A DNA stretch of 64,000 bases from Lingula anatina. Its lineage: Eukaryota > Animalia > Brachiopoda. Of the stretch, positions 2,608 through 64,000 are shown one piece after another. A program made the position numbers and the translations under genes. Under the pieces are notes generated by a model, which was given only the letters and a program-made list of their open reading frames with translations, did no database searches and had not been told where the DNA came from. Within the stretch, counting starts at the first letter, position 1. Each line of letters starts with the position of its first letter. The DNA lies in NCBI GenBank assembly GCA_051362555.1, contig CM120643.1, forward strand, positions 19,720,848-19,784,847, written 5' to 3'.

Positions 2608-24985
<22,378 letters not shown>

Positions 24986-34300: not shown

Positions 34301-35274
34301 GAGGGGTGTCTTGTCCAGCACAGGGTCCAAACTGAGCAGTGCAGAGTTCCCTGACAGGAGAGGACCAGCTGGGGCTGTTATCACACTGCCTAGCTTCTCT
34401 ACCTCTCTGTGATGTACAGAAAATATTGATAAGTACAATTTAAATCATATATAAAACCCATTACTTGACAGAGTAGTGGAGCACTTTATGTCTTTTCACG
34501 ACCAGTACAATTTTCTGTTTCGCACCATTTTTTTTTTTTTTTGGGGGGGGGGGGGGGGACAGAGATATCTTCTAACAATCTTCCAAATTATCTTTGTTGA
34601 TCCATCCTCCATCTTGACTGTTTATGACAGAAAGAAATTAGATGCCCATCTAAGTAAACTTTAAAAATTCTAAGCCTCTTCTGGAAGACCCAGAAGACAG
34701 CTTCTGTTTGCCCCTGATTTTTTACTGGCCCTAATATGTAATTACTCCCTTTCACAAGTTTGCTACCAACTGTTTGGTCGTCTCTAAATCAATTTGGTTA
34801 ACTGGCTGTGCAGAGTATGGGCCCTGTTTACAAAACTCTATTATGTACTAGTAATGGTATTAATTTCTCAATCTATCAAAATCTATCTGTGAAAAGTGCC
34901 TTTTAATTAAAATTCTCGGAATATTACAATTTACATCACCCACATAATCCATTACTTAAAATCGTTTCAAAATAAACCGGGAAGAAAATTCAGATAAACA
35001 TCGTAGACAGAAGCGTACTACGTTTTTTTTGGTGAATAAATTAGCCATAAGAAATAAGAATCATTACATGATTAGGATGTATTTACCCAAGGTTTTGATT
35101 CACTGACAACAAGCCTTGCTGCAACTCATTAAGGAATGACCGTTCTTTGTTTTCATTGCTGATGTATTCCTTCATTCCATTTCTGAATCTTTCGAATACT
35201 TGGTTAACGCTGGATCGGAGAGTTCTTACTGCTAAAAGCGACCTTGCTAACAAATCTTGAATGTCTGTAGCCAT
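31339..35274 (-). CDS. MED27: Mediator of RNA polymerase II transcription subunit 27, complete spliced CDS (8 exons, 307 aa)
   Basis: Minus-strand exons: 35274-35087, 34406-34262 (..LLSLDPVLDKTPLHSQLLQAYKWSNK), 33857-33724, 33301-33208, 32666-32559, 32312-32271 (LDIWTKSKY), 31928-31851, 31473-31339 (TWLNSYTSLFTIPCAKCETYLQDNLPPTWREFRNLKPYHEGCRP*). They sum to 924 nt in one open frame and match MED27 motifs recalled from vertebrates, including the C-terminal CxxC...H..C. Confidence 0.96.
32820..32987. repeat. 84-bp tandem duplication in MED27 intron 4
   Basis: GGGTCATTTGAGTCATTCTTGTGAATT.TGTACCCTGGACCCC at 32837 and 32921. Confidence 0.85.
34148..34290. repeat. 35-bp tandem repeat spanning the MED27 exon 2 donor site (4 copies)
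   Basis: Units 34148-34182, 34183-34216 (34 bp), 34217-34251 and 34252-34286. Confidence 0.95.
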
Positions 35275-35944
35275 TGTGTAGTTTATGTTATCGGAGTCTA
35301 GTTGCACTGCTTTTCAGTATAGCTATTAGCCAAGAAAAGATTTGCCTGTGCTGACCACAAAAACATTAATCGTTTCATCACTGAAAATGTAAAGAAACAG
35401 ATTCAAGTTTGTATATAGTTACGAACTCTTCAAAACAATTTAACATAAACACGTCAATTCCATAATTTTTTACACTTAGTCTCATCTTGGGTAATATGAT
35501 ACGTTAAGCTTCCTACCCGAATCTCCTTCTTGTGAAATAAACGAAACATCTTTAAACATCTTTAAAAGAGTGAAATAAATAAAACAATTCTAAATTGACT
35601 TTAAACAATGTCCCTTTTGTTTACTGAAATAAATTTTGAAAATACTAATTAATTACTACCCCACATCGTTACTCCATTATGTGATAAGCGTGTCTTACCC
35701 TAATTTTGGGATATTTCACATCTATTTTTTTTCTCAAATGAAAAAATGGTTTGTGTATTGGTGTTGTAAATTGGAAAATTACAATTTGTGGCACCGCCTT
35801 TGATATGATGCTCAAAAATCGCTCCCACTTTGGATTTCATCTCCCCAAGGCTGAGCTCTTCTCCCCTTATGTAAATTTGATAACAAATAAATAAATAAAT
35901 TAATTAATTAATTAAAACTAAAAGAAAGAGAGAAAGACTAATTG

Positions 35945-42300: not shown

Positions 42301-45300
42301 AAAGAATTGCACTGAGAGACATATAAGACATAGAGCGCATTCTGAACAGCAGATTACCAGATCCACAGATCAAATATGGCGACCAACTAAAAAGCTTGCC
42401 CCTTAATATACACTAAATACACTAAATACATTCCCTGCAGAGTTTACACAACAAGCATTCAAGTGGGTTGGTCACATTGATCTGTGTATCTGTTAGTCCG
42501 CTGTTCTGAATGCGCTCATAGATGTAACTGACCCTCCTATGTTCAGTGACCAGTGCCCTGAGTTCCAGTTCCAGGCTGTTGCTGACCATTCCAGGGTCCA
42601 GTGTGGAGGCACACAGGGGCGGCAGACCTGGCCAGGACGGCATGGCGCCCGCGCCACACAGGGACAAGATGGCGTCTTCAGACATGCTCTTCCAGCGAGC
42701 CTCATTTTGGAGATCAAAGTGGCAAGTTTGGACAGAATCATTGGGCTGCAAGTATTGAAAGTACCTCAATTCAATGTATTACTTATTAATATAATTTTAA
42801 TGACTCTCCTCTCTTACTAGTGTACTGTGTAAACAACGTTATTTCTTTCTCTGGTTAGACTGTGGAAGCTTAATTTCTTTAGCTGAGACACACAAAACTG
42901 TGTCAAAATCAAGTAGCAGACGTTAATGAAACAACATGAATAAAAATAATATATAAAAAATATTTTCAAATTGTTACCTGAAGGCAGAAAATTTTACAGG
43001 GGAAATAAAGTTACAAAAGAAACCAAAAGACCAGTATCTGTTTTATTCAATCATTTTCCTGGACCCTATTTCCAAACAATACAGGTCAATCCTGGATATA
43101 AAGCAGAGGGGACGGGAGGGGGGTAAGTGTCCCAATTTGCGCCACCCCCTCCCCCTGAATTCTGCCTTCTGTAATTCTTACCTGGCTATTGGCATAAAAA
43201 CTCTGGTGGTTGAAGACAGCCCCCACTGTTTTATAAGGGTGTTGGACCTTGGGGGCGGTGCCAGGCAGGTCATCTGGGTTGGACGGTCTGTGAATATACC
43301 TAGGAATATATCAACAAAATGTGAGGTATTTGTAGATTCACATCCCCAGGGTTGGTACCTCATGTAATTTTTTTTTTAAGAGAAATATTTTTAATTTTTA
43401 ATTTTTTTTCTGTCTATGCAAAGTCAAAGGACTACAATCCTAGCAGCCTTACAAAATTAGTACGTTTAATTTTTATTAAACATACATCATTGACGAACAG
43501 TTCCAATTTTCTCTCCAGAAAAAGAGAAAATGCAATATAGTTTTTAAAACCAAGATAAGTCAATGCCCTAAACGTCAAACATTTCAATATAACTTTTTCA
43601 TTAATTAGCTGGCATCATCAAAGAATTTTGTAATCAACAGCATGCAGAGGTTAACTGATAGCCCAAAGAGTATTCCTGTGTCAGGGCAGATCCAGAGATA
43701 TTTTCTGCTGGTCTTCCTAATTATCTTTGTTGATCCATCTTCCAATGTTGACCATCTTCTGTCAGTTATTATTATTTATTAATTTTATTTATTAATTTTA
43801 TTTATTTAATTACATTAATTATTTAATTAGATGCCTGTCACTGAAACTTGAAGAATTCTAATTGTCTTCCGTCCACCCCCATGTGCCCTGTGTACATACC
43901 TGTGTCCAGTCAAGCTTTCCCAGAAAGTGACCAGTCCATCTGTGTTAATGGTGACCACCCAGGCATGTGCTGCCCCCTTGGACTTGGTCCCCACACAGAC
44001 ATAGGAGTCCAGGCCAAAGCCCATTAATAAGCTGCATAATAATACTGCATGGTCTTCACTGTCCTGAAATCATACGTACAGTACATATAAAAAACCTTTT
44101 TTAAGGTGTCTTGATATTTCAAATACTGTCACAGAAATTGTCAAAGAGTTCAAAATATTTTCAGAAAATTCAAAATACATATGAAAGAAGCAATACAAGA
44201 GATCATCATTGTGCTATGATATACCCATTCAGAGTAGCTAGCAAATATGTCCCATTGGCAGAATATTAAAAGAAAAAAAAAAAAAACATATGAGTGAGCT
44301 GAGAGAATAAGTGACAATAAGCCTTCAAAGAGGTTGAAAAGGTGCCTTACAACTCACCAATAATTCTATCTCAAGGAAAACCAAAAGAATACTGAGTAGC
44401 TTAATGTGTCCTAACATTTTGTCTCTTAGACCCTGTTCCCACAGATTTTAGATCGATCTATCCCTGTGGGGAGTCTCACTAGATTACTGTCAGCTTAGCC
44501 GGCTTAAGCATCTGTCCCGCCTACTAAAAGCTGTAAGGGGGTAATTAACTACCATCTGCGCTCGGCTGACTGCAATTTAGCATGAACCCCAGGGAGTTAG
44601 GTCGATCCAGATGGATCGATCTAAATATCTGGGAATGCACTCTAACACAGGTTCACACAGTATTCTCAAAACAATATGCACACAGGGTAACTAATATCTT
44701 GGCTTTCTTCTTCCCTAATGTAACCATAAAATATTTAAAAGGCACATTGGTTTCAGGAAAAGCCAGATATGTAATTACTCTGTGAATGCATCATTTTGAG
44801 TGTATTTCTTGTCTATACAAATGAAAAAAGGCAAAATGTCAAGACTCACTTACTAGTACCTACACAATCTTCTTCCCCTTCAGGCGTTCAACCCCTTGTA
44901 TCAGTATATGTGGTATACACTCGAATCAGTATATGTGGTATAGTCTCGTATCAGTATATGTGGTATAGTCTCGTATCAGTATATGTGGTATACACTTACA
45001 AGTATCAGTATATGTGGTATACACTCGAATCAGTATATGTAGTATACATTTGAATTAGTACATGTGGTATACACTTGTATCGGTATATGTGGTAGACACT
45101 TACAAGTATGGTTATGTGTGGTATATACTTGTATCAGTATATGTGGTATACACTTGTATTGTTATGTGTGGTACACACTTGTATCAGTATATGTGGTATA
45201 CACTTGTATCGGTATACGGGGTATACACTTACCCCTTTGTTTCTACACAGAAAAGTGTGCATATTAGCCCACTGCTCTGCCCTTTCTCCTCCACCCAACA

Positions 45301-46587
45301 CAGGGACTTTCTCATAACCAATTAAGCTAACAAAACGGCTGGCTTCTCTGGGTGTGTCCAGTAGACGTCCGGCTCGCAGAGGACGGACAAAGGAACAGAC
45401 TGGCTTGTTCACACAATTCTCGTCCTGAACAATGATCAAATAAAGTTCACAATTTCTGACATTTCCTCTATTGCGTACAAAGATTTGCCTAATTCTGTTT
45501 CTGTGCATCAAATACCCATTTGTTACCATAAGACAAATATACTGAAAATGTGTACAAAAGACAGACTATATTGAAAAGCATTTGTTATACGCATTTCCAC
45601 CATACCCGTGAACAAAACTGAAACCCAAAGGACAACAACAGAAACTAACTTAAAACAATACAAAAGAAATAACTTCATAAAACTATCGTAAAAACACTTT
45701 CCCCAGAAACCACCAAACAAAATTGCTACCTACAGGGCGACTACAAAAACAAAGGATAAACATAAGTTACTTAATATCCTAATCTTATTTAACTGTCTCA
45801 TTTTCTTTTCTCCTTTATCACAATACCTGTGCAAATATCTTGACCATCCTCTGCCCATGTGACTGTCTTATTTGTAGGAACTCTCTCCACCACTGTTTAG
45901 CATACACCAAAAAGAGACGCTCCTTTTCTGCTTGCTTACTCTTTTCTAAACTCAACTGTGCTGAGATGACATCTTCTGCTAAAATGTGTTGTGTCTTTGG
46001 TATCAATTCTATTTGCACATCTAAGATACCTACTGGTACTTTATTCTCTGTTCCTGTCCAAAAAAAAAAAAAAAAAAATTGAAATAGTTGTCACTCTATA
46101 TCACACATCAGTATGTTTTCAACCTTAAATCGTATACAGCAGTCAAGGGATCTCTTCTGGGAAAAACCTTCCCAATATTTCTGCTATATATCTGCTTGCT
46201 ACAGATGTGATTGAGGTGAGTTTTCATATTAAACAGACACTAAGCATTCTATGCAAACTTTAAGAGACCATCCTTGTGGAATAACAGATAAGTATATATT
46301 AATGATTATCTTGCAACAAAAAAAGTTACTCCACATATGCAATGCTTTAAATGCTGTCAATTTAGTTCAGTTAGTTCCATAAATCTATTTCATTCATATC
46401 TGTCCTCATCAGGAGTTAAATAACATTTTACACAATGGAAGAACTAAGGACACCAGAGCTGGTTTCTTTAATGATCTAGATGTATTATTTACAAAGACTT
46501 ACAGGGTTGAAAAATGAAATAAAAAAAAAAGAAAAAAGAAAACAGCTGTCCCTCAAATGAAAAATGCATCTCTCCAGTAGCAAAGAA

Positions 46588-46618
<31 letters not shown>

Positions 46619-48960
46619 CTCCATTCTGTTCCTGGCAATATAAGCTCTGACCTACCTACTCCCATGAGTTCTAAGGACATACTAACTCTGCCTGCCTGTG
46701 AGGCTAGTACAGTTCTCCATTCAAGGAAATGGGATGACAGCAGAGTTCTGTCCCCTGAGGAGTCTGTCTTTATAAGGACAAGATGGAGAGGATCACACAT
46801 TGACAGCATGGCTGTAGGGTCTGCCATGCGGGCTGCATCACCTGAAAAATAGAGACATTTCTCTCATCAATTAAACTTTGGACTGTAAAATAAATCAACA
46901 TCTGTCATGCGGGCTGTGTCACCTGAAAAGAGACATTTTTCTCATCAATTAAACTTTTGACAGTCAAATAAATTATCAGCTTAAAAGTTGCAAGAATATG
47001 AAGAATAACCATCCATTAAAATTGATTTTGAAGACAAAAGTCACAGTTGACATTATATATTTTTAATTTATTTACTTTTCACATTGTGAAAAAATATAGT
47101 GGGTTTACTCAGTTAAATAAAATTTTTCACATAAAAATTAGTGAAAAATTCAAGCCTTTTTTTTTTTACCCCCCCCCCCCCCGACTATCACTTAAATTCA
47201 ATGACAAAAAATTAAAAACTTAAGCTACTCTTTCAACATATTACCTGCATTATCTTTGTGGAGTTCAAGCAAAAAGCCTTCCTTTAAATCTGGTTCACAG
47301 GCACAAGCCACTGGCCTTGAGCTGAACCTTTGACCTCTAAAGTTAAGGTGCAATGTGAAGGTCGCTGAAGCATGACCTTGAACAGGCTGACCTTCATGTA
47401 AGTGCTCCAGAAATGCCTTGCCACCAAGTATTTGGAAATAGATATAGCGCCGAGTAGGATCAACTGGAGCTGAGTACAAAGAGGGAGAAAATGTATCAAT
47501 CAACATGAATATACAAAAAGATAAATTAGAGAATAATAAAACCATGGTAAGTTACATGGAAATCTTAATCTCTCTGTATGTGAACCACGTAGAACAAAAT
47601 CAATTTGAATTATGAAAATTTTACATTTTATAGTACTAGGCCCAGTTTCATCAACACCGGATAGTGCTATCCTCTGGATAACACTATTCATTAGATAAAA
47701 TTGTTATCCTCTGGACAATTATCCTTTGGGTAAAATAATGTTTACCAAATCCTAGATACTTATTTTTGTCTCTGATATTGCCTTCCAGTGGATAAAAATG
47801 GCTGATATCATCAGGATAACTGTCCAGGCGATAAGGATTTTATCTGATGGATATTGTTATCCATAGGATAGCGCTATCCAGTGTTGATGAAACATATATG
47901 ACAAACTTTCTGCAATAAAATTATAAGGAATTATTTTCTAATTTGGGAGTTGACTAATGCTCCAAGGGCAGTCTTTGCCAAAAGAACTTACTAGTACTCA
48001 ATCACCTTGCTAAAAAATAACAGAGAATTTCAAAACTAGCTTTCTGTTAAAAAGGTAAATCATATCACAAGCAAAATTTCAAACATACTTTTCTTAGAAG
48101 CACCGCCCTTCACATTCTCATCCTTCGTTACCAATCTTGCAGCTGGCCTTAGGGGGCTTTGGCGAGATGTTCCGTCGAATGCCAACTGCTGCATAATATC
48201 ATCAACCACCCCCTGCCTACGCAGTGCATCCAAGATTTCATTTTCACCAATCTGGTCTGGGTCATATACTGTTTCTTGGTGGCCAAAATTTTGAGACAAT
48301 ACATCTTTTATTCTGGACTGGATATCATGCTGATATGAAATGAAATAATGATGACTTAAATTGAAATTGTGCAGTGATTTTAATAGAAGTATCATTGGAA
48401 TTCCAACTACTACCTTATGTGTGCCTCACCTACATTGTTCTAAATGGGTCCTAATCACACAAATATCTTTTATACTCATTTTAAACTTGAAGCCTGCCAG
48501 GTATTGTGATATTTTAAAGCAAAAGAAAATGTTACCAAACCTACATTTCTCTTTGTTTTTCAGGAAAAAAGTTTTCAAAAACCCATACATTCCTGATGCC
48601 TATCAAGCTACCAGACCGAAGCTACCACTGTACACTGAATGTTACTATATCAGTAAACTTTGATGAATTTGTAGCCCTACCATATAAACACGAGATGACC
48701 ATGCTATTCCAAATAGAGGAGATCAAACATACACTACTGTTAGTCCACTGAATCAGAAATAGATACATATAACATGTATACTGAGAATAAACTAGACTGT
48801 ACCAATATGCAAAGCTTAGACAAATTAATCAGAAACCAACTTGCGGCGGGGTGGCACAAAATTGTAAATAAAAAATCAAACATATTTTCTTAGTTACCTG
48901 TGAAAGATGATTATGAATTATTTGCTTCAGTTCTCCTATCTTTTCTGGTGGTAAGCTCAT
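39358..48960 (-). CDS. CEP76: Centrosomal protein of 76 kDa, complete spliced CDS (12 exons, 661 aa)
   Basis: Minus-strand exons: 48960-48898 (MSLPPEKIGELKQIIHNHLSQ), 48329-48089, 47469-47245, 46841-46656, 46053-45827 (..KERLFLVYAKQWWREFLQIR..), 45424-45233, 44063-43900 (DSEDHAVLLCSLLMGFGLDSYVCVGTK..HAWV), 43299-43182, 42745-42533, 41464-41377, 39911-39782, 39496-39358 (..RLAVRVRVFPYPESACATWLMFACKYKSVL*). They sum to 1986 nt and phases are consistent. Confidence 0.97.
40185..40409 (+). mobile_element. MITE family 1 copy in a CEP76 intron
   Basis: Same internal sequence as the other copies, flanked by a CAA...CAA 3-bp duplication. Confidence 0.9.
44429..44642 (-). mobile_element. MITE family 1 copy in a CEP76 intron (reverse)
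   Basis: Same internal sequence as the other copies, flanked by TTA / TAA. Confidence 0.88.
44895..45232. repeat. ~25-bp minisatellite abutting the CEP76 exon 6 donor
   Basis: Unit GTATCAGTATATGTGGTATACACTT, ~13 copies. Confidence 0.92.
47637..47893. mobile_element. Palindromic MITE with GGATA/TATCC subrepeats in CEP76 intron 2
   Basis: GTTTCATCAACACCGGATAGTGCTATCC ... GGATAGCGCTATCCAGTGTTGATGAAAC; the inverted symmetry extends inward. Confidence 0.8.
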
Positions 48961-49029
48961 TTTATATTAATCATGCCATAACAGTTGAAGTACAAACACC
49001 TTTCAATTTTCATAAGTTTCGAAACTATC

Positions 49030-49075
49030 CCCAGTTCGAATATGGCGGATATATTTAACCACTATGTGGCGCTTC
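49030..49075. promoter_or_regulatory. Probable CEP76 core promoter region
   Basis: Lies ~70-115 nt upstream of the CEP76 ATG. Contains YY1-like AATATGGCGG (~49039-49048) and CTCF-like CCACTATGTGGCGC (49059-49072), with local CpG enrichment. Confidence 0.45.
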
Positions 49076-49819
49076 AGTCAAGAAAGTCTGTCTCCAAAAA
49101 AGAAAAGTAAGACATGACCTCAGACAGTCAGAAAATCAATATGTTGATATGAGTATTTAAATTCTCACTTAATGATTTTAAAAGTTAGCGATGATTGTCT
49201 ACCTACTTATGCAATTACGCTGTTGATTCGAAGCGCAGATAAAAAATATTTGATTATTTTCAAATTTAAATTTGAAGCGTCACCTATCGGGTATTGTAAA
49301 ATTGAAAGCGAAAGAGAAAGTAACCAAACCCGTGTTAAATTTCTTTCTTTTTTAAAAAAAGTTTTGGTACTAGGATGTGACAACATACCAAAAAGTCAAA
49401 TAAATTGCTACATGCTCTATACCACACTCTTAACGTGCTGAGGAAAAATATGACGAGTTATAGCTAGCTGGGTTTTCCCGAAGGTGTAAAATTAGATCAA
49501 ATGCATCCAATCACCCTGCCCTAACCATACCTTAAAAGGTTATATATATTCATTGAGAAGGAAATTTCACATAAAACAAAATTTTAGATCTGTGTCATGA
49601 TATTCAAAATTTATCAAAATATTGGTGGCATTTGTCAGTTCCCCTGAAATAAATGCAACAGACGATGCGTTTTGACTTAAATATTCTATTGTACGATGTA
49701 GTGATATTATTGGCATCAACAAAACCGTTGTCATAGAAGGAAGTAAAGTTTCTTTCATTTATACGGACTACGGGGAAGTGAAAGAAAGAGCAGTAGCCAT
49801 GACCTTTTTCTTTCTACTC

Positions 49820-49856
<37 letters not shown>

Positions 49857-51697
49857 GGTCAAATGATAGGGGAACGTTACTATATACGTTATATTCTGTG
49901 TGAATCCAGCACCTAGTGGCAATTTCAAACGTTTCAATTGGACCCATATGCTTGATTTTTTCGAATCTCTTAAGATCCTCTCAGGTCCTCCTTGGCTTTT
50001 CAAAGTACATTTTAAATGGGTTCTCATTGTGAATCAAAAGCGCCATCTGTGGCACTTTCAGGCTGACTTCCAAAATTAAAACATATCCGACTATGTAATT
50101 TAAATACGAAGATGTTGTTTAAACTTTATTTTAATATATTCCATATGTAGAAATACCCTAGGTTCTAGATGTCAGTTTTGCCAGCTCGTTCTTGATTTCA
50201 TTTATATCCCATAACAAAAAAGATGACTGTGAAGCTATCCCCTGAAAAGGTTTGAATAGTTAACAAACTAGCTTCACAATGGCCCTGACACTCAGGGAAT
50301 ATAGAAATGACTTACAGGCAAAATATGCCTGTTATGTGGAACCATCAGAAAAACGGATAAAAACCCTTTTACACAGAAAAACAACCTTTGTTTTTTATAT
50401 GTCACGACCCTTACTCAACAACACAATACAATATTTGTAATCTCGTAAAATTGATATTTTTAATAAAGGTCATAGCAGGACGTACATCAATAGGCAACTC
50501 TTTATTTTTTATTATTGTGATGTTCAATAATAATTAATATAAAATATATGCAATATAAAAAGTTCTTAAATTCGGCCTTTTTATTAGCTTAATTGATTTT
50601 TTAGTATTTGGAGATTAAAAACACAAACGTTGTCTAGTTTCATATCGAGGCACCACGTATTGTTCGTGTGCTCCCTTACTCATTCTTTATAGGTATATAT
50701 TGCTCAGACTATTATACTCATGTGCCTTTTTATGTTTAATAAGACACTTAAACTGTAAGCTAGCTGTAATTAAATTAGCTGATATTTTCCCTGTCATTAG
50801 TTATCACTGGCCAATACAGCATAGAAACAATTAAAAATTTCGGCCCCACTCACCCAACAACAGTTACTTTTCTTTCACTTTTGGGATAATTTAATTATTG
50901 ATTTATTTTAACAAAGCTTGAATATCAAAAAGAGTTTGACATATATGGAGAGTTACCTTTGAACTAGCTGAGTGATGCCTCAGTCAAGATAGACCGCGCC
51001 ACCTTATCACGGCTGTTATAATACTTAACCTATCCTTGTCAGAAAATCAACACATGTAAGCGTTTCAATTGGACCCGTATGCTTGATTTTTTTAATCTCT
51101 TAAGATGCTTTCAGGTTCTCATGGGCTTTTCAAAGCATGTTTTAAATGGGTTCTCATTGTGAATCAAAAGCGCCATCTGTTGTGAAAATTGAAAGCCAAA
51201 GTGAAAGTAACTGAAGCTACAGTTTGTTTGATAATTTATCGAAGTATTTTGGCCATGAAAGCTGAGTAAATGCCAGATATATCCCACAAATCAAAATTTG
51301 TTTTATATTACCTTTTTAACCACAATAACGTGATGAGAAAACTAATAATTTTGAATATTTGACGAGGATTCTGATAGCCGAACAAGATGGGGTTTTCCCA
51401 TGCCCCTGTAATTAGATCAACATAACTTAAGTCAGTTACCTTAAAAGGTGATCCTTTCAATGAGAAGAAGATTTACATAAAGCACAAATAAAGAATTCTA
51501 TCATGATGTTAGAAAATTATGAAAATACCCATGACATTTTTTTAGCTCCCTTCAGAACAATACAACTAGAAGATACGTTTAAACTGACATATTTCACCAT
51601 GTGAATGTATTGTGATTATTGGCATCAAGAGGACCACTGAAATAGATGAATCTTATTGTGACATTATAAATATGTAAAACGTCCTCGTATGATACTA

Positions 51698-51801
51698 GGA
51701 GGGATGAGTGGAGGTGTTACTGATTCGCGGTGAATCGCTCGGAAACGAAATGTGGCATTTCTCTCATCACTCAATGAACAATGGTCATGATTCTCCCTTT
51801 T
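51698..51801 (+). ncRNA. Putative ~104-nt structured Pol III small RNA (cassette B), family unknown
   Basis: PSE-like GGACCACTGAAATAG at 51631 and TTATAAATAT at 51664-51673. A G start lies ~65 nt after the ACC core and TTTT ends the unit at 51798-51801. It folds into a long GU-rich stem with two inner hairpins and is identical to the copy at 54802-54905. Confidence 0.55.
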
Positions 51802-52506
51802 GATTCTTTTTATGTTTTAAACTACTAAGTCATTGCATTGCTCCAGAGTTGTATCATATTGGTCCAATCTCTTGATATCTGTTTCTGTATGCATCCCCTG
51901 CGTGATACAGGTTCTTGATATAAAGCGGAGAGCTCTGTAGGTCAGCAGCACTTTCAAACTGTATGTTACAACTAAGGAACGGGGAGTGGCATGGAAACGC
52001 CTGGCCACCGTTTCACAAAGAATCTTAAATACGAAGTTGACTAGAATGTGTGCATATGTCCATGACAGTGCCGTAACGCTATCCCTGTAAGGGTAAGATG
52101 TGTGCTACGTGTGCTCATGTTACGTTGGTATATGTAACAAAGATGTTAGCCATAGAACGTGACTGAGATTTTTGTGCAACCGGGGCTGGCCACCTGTTTT
52201 CGAAATAAGATCCACCCTTCTCTTTATAAAATGTGACTTTTTATATGAGTAATATTTTCTGATTAGCCTTTTTTATTTTGTCATAATCTCTGTTGGGTAT
52301 AATTATCGATTTATTTTTCACATTTGGAGCTTTTCAAACATCGCAAATTTAAAAAATGCGTACTGTATATGTCAATGTGCATGGCGCTTGACTCCAGACA
52401 CACTAGCCTTTGTAGAAAATGTCATTGTACTGTCATGGAATTGATACTTGGGTTTTGACTTGCATGTTTTCACTAAGTCAATTTTATTTTAAAAATCAAT
52501 CGATGC

Positions 52507-52510
<4 letters not shown>

Positions 52511-52571
<61 letters not shown>
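52511..52571. repeat. (TA)n microsatellite
   Basis: Perfect dinucleotide run. Confidence 0.98.
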
Positions 52572-52575
<4 letters not shown>

Positions 52576-54801
52576 CAAACTTGGCGTGAAGCTTCACAAT
52601 GCTCTTTTATCGTCAACACATATAACGCAAACAAGAAAATACCCGAAACACTAATGCCGAATTGTTTAAAAGAAAAAACTCAAAGCTAGGAGCCCCGGAC
52701 AACGAACAAACGAAGTCATATGAACTGGATATTTCATATTGCACTCTTGCCCTCGATATTTTATTTCTAGGAAGATGATTGACCACCCTGTCACCGAGTT
52801 CTCCATAGACCTGCTGAGGTCTCCGAAAGGTTTAAGGCCACTAATGCTTATGTTTAAAATCTTTATTTATGAAACATACGACTGGGTGACTGTTAAAAGT
52901 TTTGTGCCGCGAATGCGATGCCAAAAATTAAAATGAATAACTACATGTTCAATATTACACTTTTATTACACAATAATGAGGCAAGGAAGGGGAAAACGTG
53001 TTGAATAGGTGACGAGCATTCTAAAATAACATAACAAGTTGGGGTTTTCCCATGGGTCTAAAATTAGAGCAACACACCTTCAATATTCTTTTTGTACCTA
53101 AAAAGGTTACTTTTTGAACGGGAAATGAACTTCACAAGAAATAAATGCATGGGTTTATATCTTAGTGTCAAAGAATTATGGAAATATTTCTGAAATTTGT
53201 TAGTTTTCTTCAAAACAATAAAATTAGAAGATACGGTTTGATTGAAATATTCTATCAAATAAATATAAGCTAATTATTGGCATCAGCAAGACCGCGGTGA
53301 TAGAAAAGAGTACCGCTGACAGTATTTATATGCAGTATTTCAACCTACTAGACGTAGTTTACAAGACCATTTTTCTTTTTCTGTAGTAAACTTTGTTAGA
53401 TATAATTGACTTACCCTTTTCGGGTGTGGAACCAACACCTGGATTTCCCCGAGTAACTTCTTCATCTACCACTATCCTTGCCTGGTACAATTTAGTCCCG
53501 CTCACCTAATACAATGGAAAAAACAGGGTTTGGGTGAAGGGAGGTTGGAGTCTGGCCTCCTTTATCAAACTAAAATGGCAGATGAACAAACTAAATAGAA
53601 ATACAAAAGAGGTTCCTGAAATCACAACAAAATCACTACATCGCACAATGTCAAATAAAGAAATGAATAGATAAAATTATTTGAAAGAAACTATGACATA
53701 GGTAACTAACAATAACGATGACAATGATAATTGATAATTGATAATGATATATAGATGCTTATTCATGTAGCGTATGCATTTATATCGGTAAATGAAAATG
53801 TACAATAGAAATGTAATAAGAAATACGTGTACTATTTATTTAGCAATCATACAGCATGACCACTCTTATAGGAATAATGCATATACAATATAATGATGAT
53901 AACAACAATGAAGCTTTAAAACTTTGCAAACACCGGGGATTTAGCATTTTCATTGTAATTTCATTACATTACATTTATTATCTAAAGAATCTGTATATCA
54001 GCATTCTTTATTTTAAGAAGTAATGACTACGGCTACAGACTCTTTGATTGTGCCATTCTCTTGCCCAATATCCCTATAGGTATAGCATCTCACATGTATT
54101 TTCATTGTCAGTATCGTATGTTTATTAAACAAGGTGCCTGGATACATCTAGGAGGTATGAACGTTTCTATTGGACGCATACGCACGCTTGATGTTTTTGA
54201 ACCTGAAAAATGCTTTCCAGTTCTCAAGTACTTTTCAAAGTACAATTTTAAATGGATTCTCTTTGTGGATCAAAAGCGCCATCTGCTGTGAATATTAAAA
54301 GCCAAAGTGAAAGTAACCGAACCTCCAGTTGTTTTGATCAAATATGGCAAGATTTCGGTCACGAAAGCTGAATGAAAGCAAAAAATATCCAACATAGCAA
54401 AAGGCGTTTTATATTACGCTTTTAACCACAATAACTTGCTGAGAAAACCAATAATTTTGCTGTTTGACGAGGATTCTGATAGCGTAACGAGCTGGGGTTT
54501 TCCCATGCCCCTGTAATTAGATCAATACCGCTTAAGTCAGTTACCTTAAAAGGTGATCGTTTCAATGGGAAGAAGATTTACATAAAACACAAATAATGGT
54601 TTCTGTCATGATGTTAGAAAATTATGAAAATACCCGTAACATTTGTGAGCTCCCTTCAGAACAATACAACTAGAAGATACATTTAGACTGACATATTTCA
54701 CCATGTGAATGTATTGTGATTATTGGCATCAAGAGGACCACTGAAATAGATGAATCTTATTGTGACATTATAAATATGTAAAGTGTCCTCGCATGATACT
54801 A

Positions 54802-54905
54802 GGAGGGATGAGTGGAGGTGTTACTGATTCGCGGTGAATCGCTCGGAAACGAAATGTGGCATTTCTCTCATCACTCAATGAACAATGGTCATGATTCTCC
54901 CTTTT
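54802..54905 (+). ncRNA. Putative ~104-nt structured Pol III small RNA (cassette D), identical to cassette B RNA
   Basis: Same promoter geometry (ACC core at 54737). Identical to 51698-51801 while the flanks diverge; TTTT at 54902-54905. Confidence 0.55.
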
Positions 54906-55069
54906 GATTCATTTTGTTTTAGAGTAGTAAGTCGCTTCTGAGCTGTGTCATATTAGTCTCAACTGTTGATATCTATTTTTGAATGCATTCACTACGCGAG
55001 TCAGGTGCCTGATATAACGTGGAGATCTCTGTAGGTCAGCAGCACTCTCAAACTGCACGATACAATTAA

Positions 55070-55288
55070 AGTCCCCTTTACACTGGACGACGTACTTTCT
55101 GCGTCCTGTAGTACGGTCCCGCTTGAGAGTAAAAAAAAAATACTGTACGTGCTCACAACTGGCCGATCTTTGAGCATTCATTCTAAAACCAAAGCAATGC
55201 TTGTGCCTCCTTTATAGGATCACAGCGATGCCAGTTTCATAGTCGCACAAAGGACGCACAAAGGACGCCGTCCAATGCTAAGGGTGAT
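55070..55288 (+). mobile_element. Harbinger-type MITE family 2
   Basis: TIR CCCCTTTACACTGGACG..; TAA...TAA TSD. Absent from the paralogous site near 51972; homologous to 62147-62368. Confidence 0.85.
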
Positions 55289-56759
55289 TAAGGGACAGGG
55301 CGTGTGGAATAAGAACGCCTGGCCACCGTTTCACAAATTAAAGTATCTTAAATCCGAAGTTGACTACCAATGATTATCTTGAACTGAACAGACCAAGTAC
55401 GGAGTTTAAAAGTTGGGCCAAATTTTAGGCTTGTGCTTTTATGAAACGGCCACTGCCTTTTCTTATTGCTCTTACATGTATCTTAATACTCATGTGACTT
55501 TTATATATGCTTAAAGGTATCCCAAGTGGGATTTTCGCGCCAAATCAAAATGCACCCGAGAGTACAGTTCTTTCTTCTTCTCACAACTCTTTGTTCTACC
55601 CAATTGGATGTTTTATACCTTTTATGCCATTTCTTATAAAATCATATGATTTCAAGCTATTGGTCTAATACTTATACCCTAATGTTTACCTGTACATTTC
55701 AAAGGAAAATTGACATCAGATACTTTGATTTGAGGGGTTTTATCGTTCTTGAGATCTGAACTGGGACGGATAAGCATGTACTGTTACGCAGGATACGTAG
55801 TCATACGTAAAAGGATTTTGGGATATTTTCAAGCACTAGTATACCGTATGTCATAATATGTAAATTGGCTTCTGTAATTTTTCTCTAATCATCATTGGAA
55901 GATACAGCATAGGAACAATTTCTCTGCCCCACTCGCACAAAATATGTGCGTCATTTTTTCTACCACTTTCAGAGAGCAATTAATAATTTTGTTTCTCAAA
56001 CTTGGATAAATCTCAAAATTTGGTCGTTTGAAATATATAGCGGGTATACCTTTGCACTGAGTGACGCTTCAATCAAGATAGGCCACCCTTTTATTAAATT
56101 CAAATCCAGAAGAGCAACACTTTACCGGCCATATTTCAAGTAGTCTCCTACCTTTGATATTTTAGAAATCCTGAAATGCTATCGTGTACTCAAGTGTTTT
56201 TCGAAGCACAGTTTTAAAATGGTCTCCTTTTGAATATGAGGCGACATCTGTTGTAAGAATTATAGACCAAAGTAACCAGACCTCCAGTTTATTTTGGACA
56301 AATGCCAAAAGCTTTGGACCACGAACACTGCATTAATGACAAAGGATCAAATAAATAACCGGTTGTATTATATTACACATCAATCACAATAACGTGCTGA
56401 GGGGGAGTCCCTGTTAAAAACTGTACGTGACAGCATTGTAATGCATAACAAGCTGGGGTTTTACCGAAGCTCTAGAATTAGATCAATAGTTTTCAGTCGC
56501 CTTAAAAGGCAATCGTGCCAATGGAAAGAGAGTTTTGACATATTTCAAAACTAGGTATTTATGTCATCGCATTTAAAAATTATGAAAATATTTGTGGCAT
56601 TTGTAACTTCTCGCCGAAGCATACAGCCGGATGACAATCAATCAAATTGAAATAATTCATCATGCGAATGTTCTGAGATTATTGGCATCAACAAAACCGT
56701 GATCACAGAAGAAAGAAATATTGACGTTATAAATATGTAAGGTGCATGTTAAGTGGACA

Positions 56760-56849
56760 GAATAAAGCCACCGTAGCGTCTCTACAATCAATCAATCGAT
56801 CAATCAATCTAGCAATCAACAATCAATCAATGGCCTTGTTCTTCATTTT
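56760..56849 (+). ncRNA. Putative ~90-nt terminal-stem Pol III small RNA (cassette E)
   Basis: PSE-like AAACCGTGATCACAGAAG (ACC at 56696) and TATA at 56727-56736. The 5' GAATAAAGCCA pairs with TGGCCTTGTTC (56831-56841), followed by TTTT at 56846-56849. Confidence 0.5.
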
Positions 56850-59800
56850 GCCATTTCATCATCATGTAGTCTTGAAGGCTGCAAAATTGTTATCCTCTTT
56901 TGTGCAGCATCCTCATAACCGATTTTGTTTCCACCCAAACCACTCCAGATATCTGTTGCAGTATTAATTTTCTTGAATGAGGTGCCAGTAGTTCTCCAAT
57001 CGAATCATAGCGTAACCCGAATGGCACAATGTAGCTCAACATTTTAAAAATTTATTTCCAGAATTTATTCGAGTGAACAAATACATTTTATATTTAACAT
57101 GCACACTTAACTAGTCACATCACTCCCATACATTTACACACGCCTCTCACATCTGGAGCAGCTACATTATATTCATCTTATGATTTCGTCATTACTAACT
57201 ATAAAAGCAGAAAAAAGTAATATTACTGCCACCATTTACCAAAAAAGTAACCAATAGACTAAGAATAAGGTTTTAAGAGCGGCATTAGACTGTAGTAAAT
57301 ACAGGGGCGGATACTAAAGCTCTAAGATTAGATCAATAGTTTTATTTGAACATTGATTAGACAAGGGTCGTGGCACAGACTTTAAATACACCATTCTCTT
57401 GCTTAGTCTTCCCTATACCTTTAACATTTCCATGTAATTTCATTATCGGTTTCATTTGTTTTCTTTCATACGGTGCGTGGATACATCTGAGGCCAGTGCA
57501 CTTACTGGCAATATTCTATTATATTATTGATGGCAATATTCTATCATATTAACAAATGGAAATTATTGGCATCAATAAGGCCGAGGTGAAAGAAAAAAAG
57601 TAGCGTTGACAGTATTTATACGCAGTATTTCGACTCACGAAACGTAAGTTACGAGACCATTTTTCTTTTTCTGTAATAAAACTTTGTCAGATAGAATTGA
57701 CTTACCCTTTTAGGGTGTGAAACCAACCCCTGGATTTCCCCGAGTTACTTCTTCATTTATCACGATCCTTGCCTGGTACAATGTCGACCTGCTCACCTTA
57801 TACAATGGAAAAAAACAGGGTTTGGATGAAGGTAGGTTGGGGTCTGTCCTCCTTTAACAAACTAAGATGGTAGATGCACCCCAAAACAGAAATACAGAAG
57901 ACACTCCTGGAATTACAAAAAAGAGGAAAAAAAACAACCCGCAATGTCAAATAAAGAATTGAATAAAATTATTTAAGGAAAGAATGACACAGTAGAATAA
58001 CAATAACTATGACAATAATAATGAAATGATTATAATACATAGATGCTTTACTCAGTGTAGCGTTTACATCTACATGGGCAAATGAAAATGTACAACAGGT
58101 GTACTATTAAACAATGATAAACTTTGAGTACATATACGAAAATAAGGAATACATATTATATAATGATGATAATAATAATGAAACCTTAAAATTACGCTAA
58201 CACGGGATATTATATCATTTTATTGCAATCTCAGTTTATTACATTGATTATCTAATGAATCTGTATATCAGCATGCATTCAATATTTTAACAGTTTTGAG
58301 AAGGAATGTCTACGACCAGTGTTGTGATACAGACTCTTTGATAGCGCCATTCCCTTGTCAAATATCTCTTTACTTATAACATCTTACGTGTATTTTTTAT
58401 CGTATGTTTTATGAAATACGGTGCGTGGATACCTATAGGACCGATTTCAGAAAACAACTTTAGCGTGAAAATTGGCCTGGGTTCTTAGACTAAGACTTAA
58501 GTTTAATTTTACCCAAAATATATCAGTTATAATACAAAAATTTATTTAAGACCAACACTGATTATCATGAACTGAATAGACCAAGTACTGAGCCTAAAAG
58601 TATGGGCAAATTTTAGGCTTGTGCTTTTATGAAACAGCAACTGCCTTTTCTTGCTCCTACGTGTATCTTAATACTCATGTGACTTTTATATATGCTTAAA
58701 GGTATCCCATGTGGGGTTTTCGCGCCAAATCAAAATGCACTACATTTTTTTTTTCTTCTTCTTCTCACGACTCTTTGTTCTACCCAATTGGATGTTTTAT
58801 TAATACTTATACCCTAATGTTTGCCAGTATATTTCAAAGGAAAATTGACTTCAGATACTTTGATTTGAGGTTTTTTATCGTTCTTTAGATCTGAATTGGG
58901 ACAGACAAGTATGTGCTGTTACGCAGGATACGTAGTCATACGTAAAATGATTTTGGGATATTTCAAGCACTAGTATACCGTATGTCATAATGTGTTAATT
59001 AGCTTCTGTAATTTTTCGCTAATCATCATTGGAGGATAAAGGAACAATTTCTCTGCCCCACTCGCACAAAATATGTGCGTCATTTTTCCTACCACTTTCA
59101 GAGAGCAATTAATAATTTTGTTTCTCAAACTTGGATAAATCTCAAAATTTGGTCGTTTGAAATATATAGCGGGTATACCTTTGCACTGAGTGACGCTTCA
59201 ATCAAGATAGGCCACCCTTTTATAAAATTCAAATCCAGAAGAGCAACACTTAACCGGCCATATTTCAAGTAGTCTCCTACCTTTGATATTTTAGAAATCC
59301 TGAAATGCTATCGTGTACTCAAGTGTTTTTCGAAGCACAGTTTTAAAATGGTCTCCTTTTGAATATAAGGCGACATCTGTTGTAAGAATTATAGACCAGA
59401 CCTCCAGTTTATTTTGGACAAAGCCAATAGCTTTGGACCACGAACACTGCATTAATGACAAAGGATCAAATAAATAACCGGTTGTATTGTATTGTGTTAC
59501 ACATCAATCACAATAACGTGCTGAGGGGGAAACCCTGTTAAAAACTGTACGTGACAGCATTGTAATGCATAACAAGCTGGGGTTTTCCCATCAGTTTTCC
59601 AATCAGTCGCCTTAAAAGGCAATCTTGTCAATGAGAAGAGAGTTTTACATATTTCAAAACTATGTATTTATGCCATCGCATTTAAAAATTATGAACATGT
59701 TTGTGGCATTTGTGAGTTCTCTCAGCATAAGCTGGATGACAATCAATCGAATTGAAATATTTCATCATACGAATGTTCTCAGATTATTGGCATCAACAAA

Positions 59801-59864
59801 ACCGTGGCCACAGAAGAAAGAAATATTGACGTTATAAATATGCAAGGTATCTGTGAGGTAAATC

Positions 59865-59964
59865 GTTGACCAAGACCGACCGTAGCGTTTCTACATTCAA
59901 CCTTACTATCAATCAATCAATCAATCAGATAACAATCAAACAATGGTCTTTGGTCTTCTTTTTT
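59865..59964 (+). ncRNA. Putative ~100-nt terminal-stem Pol III small RNA (cassette G)
   Basis: ACC core at 59801 and TATA at 59832-59841. The 5' GACCAAGACCG (59868-59878) pairs with TGGTCTTTGGTC (59944-59955), followed by T6 at 59959-59964. Stem differences from cassette E are compensatory. Confidence 0.55.
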
Positions 59965-60481
59965 CTATTTCATCATCTTGTTGTCTTGAAGCTTGCAAAA
60001 TTGTTATGCTTTTCTGTACAGTATTCTCATTGCCGATTTTGTTTCCATCCAAACTACTCCAAGTATCTGTTGGAGTATCAATTTTCTGGAATGAGGTGAC
60101 AGTAGTTCTCCAATCGAATCATAGCGTAACCCGAATGGCACAATGTAGCTCAACATTTTAAAAATTTCTTTCCAGAGTTTATTCGATTAAACAAATGCAT
60201 TTTATATTTTACATAAACATTTAAATTAGTCACATCACTCCCATACATGCATACACGCCTCTCACATTTGGAGCAGCTACATAACATTCATTTTATGATT
60301 TCTTATTACTAACTATAAAAGCAGAAAAAAGTAATACTGCTGCCACCATTTACCAAAAAAGTAACCAACAGACTAGAATAAGGCTTTAAGAGTGGCATTA
60401 GACTGTAGTAAATACAGGGGCTGATACCAAAGATCCATAGTTTTATTTGAAGGGGGAGGGTGCACAAGCGTCTCGATTCCA

Positions 60482-60553: not shown

Positions 60554-62146
60554 GTCTATTAGGCTAGCTCATTATTACAATGTGTTCACCTGAGTTTATG
60601 AAAAGTATTCAGAATGTGCAACTAATGTCATCGAATGTCATAAATGTTAAAAGTTTAAAAAAACATCTTTTTCCCCATAGAATAATTAGACTGTCATTTT
60701 TTGCTAGTGGTTACAAAATGTTGAATTTGACCGAAAATTTCAAACTTTCTCTGGGAAGCTGTAATTTTGCGATGTGATAGCTACACCATCACAGTTTATC
60801 ATTTCATAAAAAGGGAAACAGCAGCTGCCCTTTTTAGGGCACACAGGAGAGTTGAACAGCTATACCCACCAAATCCAAGACGCGTTACCCTGGGTAATAT
60901 ATTTTGCACAAACTAATGAAAGTCTAATGGAATGTTTTCAGTTTTAGTTTAAATCATAAGGGGTGTTGTCTCAATGCTTCAAAACTGGGTTTGAAGAATT
61001 TAATCCACATTTCATAATTAATAAAAATGGTGAATATGTGGGTCACGGTAACGTTATTGACGCGGGTACAAAAACTTTTTATAATCATGTAAATAATAAC
61101 AATATTTTTGCTATTATCCATACACACTTCAATCATGAGGGGCACACCACTTTCACATGCTTTTAAAATGGAATTGACAAACACAGAGGAATAATGCACA
61201 TATTTTATTTACTGTAACTCTGTCACATGGGACACACACTGAACAAAGTTGATCTAAAGAATGTTCCAGATTGTAGTTTTTTATCTGAATTATTATTATT
61301 TTTTTATTATCATTTTAACACAATAAAGTTCAGTTAAATACAAAATTTAACAAAATGAAGTTCAGTGTAACACAAAGTTCATAATTATAACATTCTTCCT
61401 GACATATGTGGACCAATGGTGATATCTGTTTTGTGCTCACTAAGGCATCCACTCTTGGGATTCTGAAAAAAAATCACACAAAGAATCTGTTAACTTTGAT
61501 AACGAACAATGGATAACCTAAGATCACAAATAGTTTATTGCTTATTCAAACAAAGTACAGTGCATTATGAGTGGCAAACACGCATTACTGAGACACGTTT
61601 TCTTCACCCATTTTCGGTGCTTCATTGCGTAACGTAAGTGTTGCGAGTAATCCATTATTGATGTTTTTACAGACGGTTAAATTTTAAACGCACGGAATAC
61701 AGTGTAGCAGCTTAATTTAAGACAAAACTAAAAAAAAGTAATTCAATTTCGATGATTGAGTTTCGAGAACAAGAGAACATGAATACGGTATCACCGCGTC
61801 ACCATGTTCAATAAGACTTTTAGTCCCCCATGTGACACAGACGCAAAACGAAAGTTCAGACGAAGTCACCCTACTTATAGAATGGTAAAAATCAATCGGT
61901 ACACAAATATGTTGAAACAATTGAAGAAAAATGAAACGGAACTCATTATTTCTCACCTTCATACAAAGAAGATCCCTATAAACAATCCTGTGGCGGTTAA
62001 ATCGAGGGAATTACACCTGTGCCCTGCATCCTTCTCGACAGCGTCACTGACATGACATGTTATCAGAATGGGATACGCGCCAGTTTGAGCTGGTTTTTCA
62101 GTGTGCAAAAGAAGCCATTCGTGTACACGTAAGACGTCATCAGTTA

Positions 62147-62368
62147 AGCCCCCTTTACACTGGACGGCGTCCCTTCTGCGTCCAGCAGTTCGGCCCCATT
62201 TGAGAGTTAAAGAATTATAATACTTTATGTGCCGACAACTGGCCGACCATTGAGCATTCATTCTGATACCAAATCAATGCTCGTGCCTCCTTATTAAGAC
62301 CACAGCGATGTCAAATTTCATGGTCGCAGAAAGGACGCAGAAAGGACGCCGTCCAGTGTAAAGGGGGT
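62147..62368 (+). mobile_element. Harbinger-type MITE family 2
   Basis: TIR CCCCCTTTACACTGGACGGCGTCC / GGACGCCGTCCAGTGTAAAGGGGG; TTA...TTA TSD. Confidence 0.9.
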
Positions 62369-62580
62369 ATTAGTGAGGATGGAAGAAGATCGCTATCGAT
62401 GTATAATTTTCACGCGGCATTTTAAAGTCGTCTGATAAAAATCGATCTCTGAACTTTCAGCGTTGCGAACGTTATATTGGGACGCGGTGAAGAAAAATCG
62501 ACCTTGCTGAGCAATAAATGTGAAATTCTTAAGAAAACTGATATTATCATGGACTTCGTGACACAAACTAACCGACATAC

Positions 62581-64000
62581 TAGGGGAGACCGGGGCTAGC
62601 TGGACCCCGGGGTAAGTTGGCCCCCCGTCTATTTATGAAAAAGTAACTACGAGGTAAAAAAATTGGCCACATACTCTTGTAAAGTGACCGTAGCCTACAA
62701 TGCTAAGGAAGTGTCGGGCGTTAAAAAGTTTTACTTAAGCGGTGAGTCGAAATAAACGATTTTTGCACCTAAAAGTAGGGGAGACCGGGGCTAGTTGGCC
62801 CAGTTAGACACTTTTGGCCTTGTAGAGCCAACTAGGAATGGGTTAGAGTCACAAAACCGGTTTCAAAGTAAGCCCCATGAACTAAGCTACGTATGCAACG
62901 CCATTATTTTTCAAATATAATGCCAGACGACTCACAATTTGACAAAAACGCAGTTGACGTCAAGGGGGCCAACTTGCCCCGCCACGGGGCAAGTTGGCCC
63001 CAGGGTCGGGGCAAGTTGGCCCCCTATACGAAAATGAAGTATATATCCCATGTAAACGCCTTGAAATACATTTTTATACATTTTTAATTTATTAAATTGA
63101 ATTTTGAGACTCTTTGATGAATAAATAGTTCGAATGAGGCAGATTTTATGAGGTTTCCGTACGTCACGTTGTGGGGGGGGGGGGGGGGGGGGGGGGGTAT
63201 GTGTTGCAAGAACCAAAAAAATCTATCAATAAAATTTGTTTTGTTTTAGTTTAGAATAAATTAATAATGTTATAAAGCAGGTTTTTAATGAATGAAAACG
63301 AATAATCAATTTACATTTTAAAAGAAAGTAACAAATTCAGTTTTAAACCATTGAGTTTGTTTCAACAATGGTCTCTATCTAGGGAGGGGTGGAGAATCCC
63401 CTTGGGGCCACATATAACACTATAAATACAATAAAATCACCTTACAATGAATTAATGCAAAATAAATGTTTTTCTAAGAAAGTCCAATGGATTTGCTTTC
63501 TAATATATACAATCAACAGAACATTTCTAATATAAATTTTCGAAAAGACACCAGAGAGCAAATTTTTAAAAAATCAATCAGACGGTAAACACCGGCAAGC
63601 TTTGTCAATTTCACCAACTTGTTTATTTCAAACAGCGTTGCGCACAAAGGATTGTGGGTAATACGAGGGTCCAACTTGCCCCGAGTCAAGGGGGCCAACT
63701 AGCCCCGGGTGCACATTATTTATTTTAAAGGATGGTAGCCATTTATGGTGATAGAATGAACAACGATGATACATCTCTGTGAAACTTGAAACAATGAGCT
63801 TCAGTTTGATGCGATATACATATCTTATATTCGATCAAAAGCCTATGAAAATAGATTTTTAAATCTCTTAAACAAAATTTGTTACTTTCTTTTTAAAAGA
63901 AAATTTATTATTCTTTTTTTTCTTAATTTTTAATTTTTTCTTAATTAAAACAAAACAAATTTTTTTTATAGATATTTTGGTTCTTACAACACATGCCCCC
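62581..64000. mobile_element. Non-autonomous DNA transposon (TA-start, Tc1/mariner/pogo-like end), probably continuing past the window
   Basis: TA-GGGGAGACCGGGGCTAG at 62581, repeated at ~62776. Many direct and inverted GGGGCAAGTTGGCC subrepeats (62966-63024, 63668-63708). No transposase ORF. Confidence 0.6.

Follow-up and report, generated by a model that had tools for sequence, protein, structure and literature searches.

Seven promoter cassettes lie upstream of CEP76

We analysed a 64,000-nucleotide window of the Lingula anatina genome (GenBank assembly GCA_051362555.1, contig CM120643.1, positions 19,720,848 to 19,784,847, forward strand; coordinates below count from the first letter of this window). 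It carries an array of seven repeated promoter cassettes, A to G, which is probably a lineage-specific cluster of type-3 (U6-type) RNA polymerase III (Pol III) genes: as predicted from the sequence, two classes of 90-105-nt RNAs closed by a terminal stem, together with three truncated copies. The neighbouring gene outside the cluster is CEP76, on the minus strand. Spliced reads support its first exon (48898-49146) and place the 5' end within the bin 48970-49146, so that the array starts about 600 bp upstream of CEP76, head-to-head with it.

Every cassette has a proximal promoter on the plus strand, made up of an invariant 13-mer, a CC-containing core (the candidate proximal sequence element, PSE) and a TATA block. 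These promoters occupy 49706-49765 (A), 51615-51674 (B), 53273-53332 (C), 54719-54778 (D, with no differences from B), 56678-56737 (E), 57562-57622 (F, with a spacer 1 nt longer) and 59783-59842 (G). The 13-mer occurs in seven exact copies, all on the plus strand, at 49706, 51615, 53273, 54719, 56678, 57562 and 59783, which bears out the seven same-strand cores of a preliminary description of this DNA. Its spacings also held: the TATA block follows 33 nt past the core (34 in F), and the first T4-T6 run begins at core+79 to core+81 in A, C and F and at core+150 to core+165 in B, D, E and G. The combined 13-mer, core and TATA pattern matched seven times in the window and in none of 100 dinucleotide shuffles; a profile hidden Markov model of the promoter, run over the 64 kb, recovered the same seven cassettes, with nothing else below E 0.65 and no eighth copy. 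Six cassettes also have a conserved distal block on the plus strand, at 49470-49539 (A, a candidate distal enhancer with GGGTTTT, AATTAGA and CC(A/T)6GG motifs), 51389-51448 (B), 53041-53106 (C), 54494-54553 (D), 56455-56509 (E) and 59579-59619 (G, in which the AATTAGA motif is deleted); F is without one.

Duplication history of the array

Alignment identifies the cassettes as duplicates in four lineages (A; B/D; C/F; E/G); since they are copies of each other, they count as four lineages, not as seven independent loci. Twins are 86% identical over 920 bp (B/D), 76% over 956 bp (C/F) and 87% over 2 kb (E/G), and the flanks of E and G reach 97-99% identity over 600 bp. Cassettes A to E and G have 200-900 bp of upstream DNA in common at 65-70% identity; F retains only the last ~100 bp. 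A haplotype-duplication artefact is an unlikely source of the twins, which are only 76-87% alike and interleaved. Directly behind A lies a 124-bp piece of the far-upstream cassette block (49927-50050, 90% identical to 51058-51180 upstream of B) without the remaining promoter, and by this alignment it is a remnant of a deleted eighth copy.

Conservation and geometry of the promoter

Compared across lineages in nine pairs, the 13-mer is 100% identical, the core 67%, the spacer 47% and the TATA block 80%; after the TATA the figure falls to 33%, and to 24% in the first 16 bases of the body. The earlier statement that the cassettes diverge just after the TATA is therefore true between lineages; within twins it does not hold. 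Of the 412 columns in an alignment of A, B, C and E, 134 do not vary. They include one unbroken run of 13 (P 0.0001 by column permutation), and shorter runs lie at core−243, −223, −190 and −110. Spacing is preserved although 28 of the 29 upstream gaps are not multiples of three. At core−191 to −196, a CC(A/T)6GG box is present in all six cassettes that retain the upstream block and differs among them by a single change in its A/T stretch; the 64 kb contain 12 such sites, six of them in cassettes. The same six also carry a GGGGTTTT(C)CC-type motif. Motifs on the cassettes are candidates for a CArG-like box, a kappaB-like site, a reverse CCAAT and an octamer. The distal enhancer of vertebrate type-3 genes, upstream of the PSE, is of the octamer/ZNF143 kind; the distal block conserved here at core−190 to −254 in six of seven cassettes has no exact octamer; one with a single mismatch is part of the 13-mer. 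The upstream block looks like a promoter in that its small invariant motifs keep their distances although insertions and deletions surround them.

The arrangement resembles that described for type-3 Pol III genes (U6, U6atac, 7SK, RPPH1, RMRP, Y RNA): an external CC-core and TATA at U6-like spacing, a candidate distal block ~190-250 bp above the core and a predicted oligo-U end (PMC9652321, PMC3499247, PMC6023835). The human U6-1 PSE is placed at −65 to −48, and human SNAPc is described as reading its bases CC at −62/−61, GT at −60/−59, G at −53 and AA at −52/−51 (PMC9652321). With the CC of each cassette set at −62/−61, the TATA falls at −31 to −28 in all seven, so that the spacing fits human U6 geometry, as previously proposed, for a start site that is itself predicted. 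In this human register, to be read with the taxon specificity of PSEs in mind (PMC9841428), the CC is matched in 7/7 cassettes, the next G in 5/7, T−59 in 3/7 and A−52 in 7/7. When the 3' GAA of the PSE is slid by 2 nt, its G and first A match in 7/7 and its second A in 5/7. The cassettes differ from known type-3 genes in a core whose 3' half is 2 nt out of register, in an invariant 13-mer that abuts the core, and in bodies that match none of them.

A pyrimidine-purine step suited to initiation occurs at core+63 to +65 in six of the seven cassettes; the exception, A, has none anywhere from core+60 to +67. The preliminary description had counted a purine at +64 or +65 in favour of a start. It is present in 7/7, but the region is 50% purine, so that one would be expected at about three quarters of random places, and the argument is at chance level. 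The oligo-T ends on which it also relied are likewise present in 7/7 and alone weigh little, because T4 runs are common here: 29% of random positions have one no more than 25 nt away, and 73% have one no more than 110 nt away. The position of the T run matches the ends of the predicted stems and the end of B/D identity. T4 is described as the minimal and T6 as the full Pol III terminator (PMC5725217).

A metagenome scan with the promoter, aimed at a U6 gene, gave eight matches that we judged to be chance (open prokaryote-like frames of 104-842 aa, no Rfam match, no BLAST similarity to the window). A literature search made largely without subscription journals and invertebrate 7SK papers found no published spiralian PSE consensus.

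The long bodies carry footprints resembling selection

Four cassettes would specify RNAs of 90-105 nt on the plus strand. B (51697-51801) and D (54801-54905) have the same predicted 105-nt product, a three-way junction made of a long G-U-rich stem, two small apical hairpins and a short stem closing the 5' and 3' ends, followed by T4; the predicted folding energy of B is −30.6 on the plus strand and −21.2 on the minus strand. E (56760-56849) would give a 90-nt RNA with 10 of 11 pairs in its 5'-3' stem, a 4-bp hairpin, a CAAT-repeat loop and T4, and G (59865-59964) a 100-nt RNA with 11 of 11 pairs and one bulged U, the same 4-bp hairpin, a CAAT-repeat loop and T6.

Between B and D there are 0/60 differences in the promoter, 3/22 in the spacer from TATA to start, 0/105 in the body and 86/564 in the flanks, a flank count that omits the 37 nt directly before the 13-mer (one difference). 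By Fisher's test, body differs from flanks (p 2e-7) and promoter plus body from spacer (p 0.0014), and identity ends 5 nt past the T4. E and G show the opposite balance, with 18/88 differences in the body versus 60/712 in the flanks (p 0.001), and yet the 11-pair terminal stem is kept through two double and three single changes. The 5' strand has five of the changed bases and the 3' strand two, each of which compensates for a change opposite it; when changes were placed at random, the stem held this well in 0.04-1.1% of trials. The small hairpin has one change, in its loop. Together, these patterns support selection-like footprints on the four long bodies. B and G also have a 10-mer in common near the 3' end, at a distance of 15-16 nt. 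It is the best result among 11 pairs (p 0.012 before correction) and hints that the long bodies may descend from one ancestral family.

The same patterns bear on another possibility: segmental duplication may have multiplied a regulatory region, such as the far side of the CEP76 promoter, into copies that are dead or incidental, give no functional transcript and owe their conserved patches to recency and gene conversion. The closeness of cassette A to the CEP76 5' end, the large duplicated blocks and 97-99% identical tracts, the near-absence of reads and the unstructured stubs that form the bodies of A, C and F (see below) all fit such an origin. Conversion, however, should also have removed the three B/D spacer differences, which lie between two invariant segments; the 13-mer is unchanged and the spacing fixed across lineages only 65-70% alike; and the changes in E and G preserve the stem. 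We consider an origin as dead copies unlikely.

The predicted RNAs match no Rfam family

The bodies had been described as unlike U6, U6atac, 7SK, tRNA-Sec, vault and canonical Y RNAs, and searching them with Rfam, Y RNA, vault and 7SK models included, agreed: no family matched at its gathering threshold, and neither these nor RNase P/MRP appeared at E ≤ 10. At that cut-off the region, and B, E and G singly, gave weak, unrelated matches only, and neither Y_RNA nor vault matched even on 113-128-nt stretches. A tRNA scan with ARAGORN found none.

The closest likeness is to Y RNAs and stem-bulge RNAs (sbRNAs), described as ~100 nt long with paired ends and a variable loop, encoded by several genes with Pol III promoters (PMC4726728, PMC8477234, PMC10498592). 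The long RNAs could be far-diverged members of a Pol III family already known, the Y/sbRNAs missing from lophotrochozoans being the most plausible, a reading that concerns their identity only and is compatible with the type-3 promoters proposed here. In its favour, B/D (105 nt), E (90 nt) and G (100 nt) have the expected length (100 ± 20 nt), predicted paired ends and a variable loop behind a multi-copy type-3 promoter, as in the published accounts (PMC4726728, PMC10498592); A, C and F do not. B can form the GUG-CAC helix of the upper stem (A/GUG-CAC/U in Y RNAs and sbRNAs), at 2.3 kcal/mol above its minimum, but with a pairing probability of 0.02, and the E/G stem has no GUG-CAC pair. Further, the single bulged C that forms the Ro60 site in the lower stem is missing: the E stem has an A-C mismatch instead, in G the 3' strand bulges a U, and the B closing stem has no bulged C. 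The loop motif UUAUC occurs in 0/6 bodies tested, the E/G loop is a CAAT repeat, and B/D form a three-way junction. With no Y_RNA or vault match as well, membership in such a family seems quite improbable.

Other likenesses are looser. Vault RNAs are ~100-nt Pol III RNAs in small clusters that need internal boxes (PMC7904556), and are reported in two lophotrochozoan lineages (PMC2770079); the consensus pattern of the internal B box is found in 0/6 bodies tested, and Rfam gave no vault match. With the primate-restricted snaR genes (PMC10498592) the cassettes would have in common that they encode stem-loop RNAs, expanded recently, are diverging and are confined to one lineage; snaR genes, however, have internal A and B boxes and derive from Alu, whereas the cassettes have an external promoter and no recognisable parent. 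The spliced-leader RNA and telomerase RNA readings were dropped after scans for Sm-site and template patterns. None of the six bodies has a template-like hexamer for TTAGGG, which we assume to be the Lingula telomere repeat; the likeness to insect telomerase RNA would lie in an overlooked RNA behind a type-3 promoter (PMC9841428). A box C/D small nucleolar RNA in B/D was rejected because an archaeal sRNA model scored only 10 bits there, with a gathering threshold of 42, and because the C-like and terminal D-like boxes are each one base off (by eye); a hammerhead ribozyme was dropped by eye only. The literature search found no description of the cluster either, which does not establish its absence from print.

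Sequencing reads

Of the nine Lingula read libraries, six are poly(A)/oligo-dT and three unspecified; seven runs were mapped, with 6-26% of each read. In four runs on 53000-60300 at 90% likeness, the only reads fell on the miniature inverted-repeat transposable element (MITE) at 55067-55290. In four runs on 47200-52480 at 80%, reads covered CEP76 exons at depth 0.3-15 (some of them 99% alike) and several repeat elements. The B bin (51625-51801) had a depth of 0.75 in one run, about 133 letters and so about one fragment, with adjacent bins empty. Because the libraries are of messenger RNA type and CEP76 itself is shallow, such mapping is weak both ways for ~100-nt Pol III RNAs; the reads do count against a well-expressed polyadenylated gene at the cassettes. 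In the same stretches, MITEs drew tens to hundreds of reads from diverged copies and the cassettes none, which argues against a high-copy dispersed repeat.

These observations also bear on whether the cassettes are Pol II promoters, with a kappaB-like site, a CArG-like box, a reverse CCAAT and a TATA box, for short non-coding or unannotated stress-inducible genes, with the T runs irrelevant. Both the CC(A/T)6GG and the GGGGTTTT(C)CC-type motifs would suit such promoters, and type-3 promoters are described as able to recruit Pol II too (PMC6023835, PMC3499247). Yet the cassettes have no common open reading frame or exon downstream and no plus-strand poly(A) reads, though CEP76 mRNA was seen; B/D identity ends just past the T4, and the closing stems span the predicted start to the T run. 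Pol II promoters are thus distinctly doubtful.

The short cassettes A, C and F

In A, C and F a T5 run begins ~15 nt into the body, and the predicted products, all on the plus strand, are unstructured and 20-22 nt long: ~22 nt in A (49788-49809, with an A32 run after it at 49823-49854), ~20 nt in C (53355-53374, with another T5 6 nt on) and ~20 nt in its twin F (57645-57664). Cassette A is likely to be non-productive or to give a tiny RNA. Over its predicted start lies an inverted repeat of a purine-rich and a pyrimidine-rich arm (49774-49820; z −2.8 for 49780-49815), and no target-site duplication was found at the A32 run.

The three products end in GACC(A)TTTTT, complementary to a motif common to the long bodies. 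The predicted duplexes join C to 10 of 11 bases of E and to nine contiguous bases of G, and F to nine of G. Without correction, p is 0.015-0.06 for the duplexes of the four C/F-E/G pairs and 0.09-0.6 for those of the remaining five. All seven cassettes might then be active, with ~20-nt A, C and F RNAs pairing in trans with AAUGG(U/C)C near the 3' ends of the long RNAs and switching their terminal stem or protein loading. However, one 7-mer is found both in C and in the 5' stem strand of G, about equally far from their cores (p 0.10). The complementarity is therefore more simply explained if the short bodies descend from the 5' strand of an ancestral stem that was truncated, and we hold trans-pairing to be very unlikely. 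Most likely, A, C and F are truncated, non-productive copies left by birth-and-death turnover.

Behind C (53416-53505, minus strand) and F (~57707-57797, minus strand) lies an exon-like piece in which 30 codons stay open up to a GTAAGT donor, except that a stop interrupts the F copy. Identity between C and F is raised there (22 differences in 206), and a weak search found no Pfam match and no homologue.

Weighing the Pol III reading

The preliminary proposal of a duplicated and diversified small-RNA gene cluster survives in part. Type-3 geometry, promoter-like conservation, the lack of a coding or high-copy-repeat signal and the footprints on four long bodies support it; the ACC core is a candidate PSE that matches the SNAPc-read bases in part, and A, C and F are doubtful as productive genes. 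The cassettes are duplicated and diverged, as proposed, but would not give seven RNAs: there are at most two long classes (three distinct sequences) and three short cassettes.

Several observations weigh against a Pol III cluster. No reads fell on the C to G bodies in four runs at 90% likeness (mapping passed over the CAAT loops of E and G), none on A in four of four runs and none on B in three of four at 80%. PSE bases G−53 and A−51 are each matched in 0/7 cassettes in the human register, and the strongest conservation is in the 13-mer upstream of the core, not in the candidate PSE. B, D and E would terminate in T4 only. Folding z-scores on the plus strand are modest (B −1.5, E −2.1, G −2.5; −0.8 to −1.6 with flanks), and E folds as well on the minus strand (z −2.8). 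The E/G stem test compares two sequences in an alignment set by eye with the structure in mind. Finally, the 97-99% identical flanks of E and G indicate that conversion or recent copying acts here, and gene conversion or recent duplication of that kind could mimic part of the B/D footprint.

The preliminary description had itself allowed for a decayed coding exon or a dispersed transposon. None of 89 frames has a Pfam match, 16 gap-free blocks have no synonymous bias, one of 29 gaps is a multiple of three, and the longest stop-free run is 51-73 aa; inverted ends at the cassettes are absent among the 25 longest in the window. A minus-strand structured RNA in the upstream block was rejected as well: the consensus fold is −15.5 (plus) and −11.0 (minus) versus about −58 for single sequences, with no common fold on either strand. 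That the conserved 300-500-bp block is itself the element, as a transposon remnant, decayed exon or minus-strand RNA, is thus highly improbable even though homology extends across hundreds of bases and the TATA block is also a TATA box when read in the minus direction, since there are, besides, no diverged-copy reads at 80% (A, B), no further copy in the 64 kb and no target-site duplication at the A32 run.

Neighbouring genes and repeats

The window has G-alpha at ~6300-25000 (plus), MED27 at ~35100-35300 (minus) and CEP76 at ~41400-49100 (minus). One CEP76 exon has 99% identity with Lingula anatina CEP76, and among 111 matches no other exceeds 78%; Pfam confirmed the CEP76 and G-alpha exons, and the MED27 exon is similar to solved Mediator chains. 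We take the G-alpha gene to be Gs-like, in which case a G-alpha-s gene near CEP76 presumably resembles the vertebrate GNAL-CEP76 linkage.

A CEP76 intron holds 13 copies of a 25-bp minisatellite (44895-45230), and an intronic repeat inside CEP76 occurs by eye in two copies of opposite orientation (40190-40370 and 44440-44640). MITE-like repeats, recognised by inverted arms or many diverged reads, lie at 47640-47893, 50154-50280, 52000-52105, 55067-55290, 62137-62379 and 63216-63978; those at 55067-55290 and 62137-62379 are one family in opposite orientations.

A model for the cluster and its significance

In the Pol III model, the CC-core (about −63 to −47) would be the SNAPc site and the TATA block (about −31) the TBP site, the invariant 13-mer would be bound by an activator or lie in an extended SNAPc footprint, and the block at about −255 to −315 would take distal factors. 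Transcription by Pol III would begin around core+63 to +65 and end in the first T run, giving B/D (105 nt) and E/G (90-100 nt) RNAs with ends closed by a 5'-3' stem and an oligo-U tail. These would most likely be La-bound, protein-binding riboregulators that work like Y/sbRNAs, vault RNAs or snaRs, with a terminal stem and a variable loop, but lie outside those families, and A, C and F would be the truncated residue of the turnover proposed above.

The Pol III small-RNA repertoire of spiralians is poorly charted; in the sources cited here, Y-like RNAs are reported from vertebrates, nematodes, a few insects and amphioxus, and Ro60 from most animals (PMC2770079, PMC4726728). A defined Lingula promoter cassette offers a handle for retrieving type-3 genes from brachiopod and related genomes, and a search by type-3 promoter is the strategy described behind the discovery of insect telomerase RNA (PMC9841428). 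The cluster offers candidate new RNA classes, and the cassette itself is a candidate for expressing guide RNAs in brachiopods from a native promoter. If expressed, the array would be a case in which an external promoter was duplicated and new RNA bodies arose behind it.

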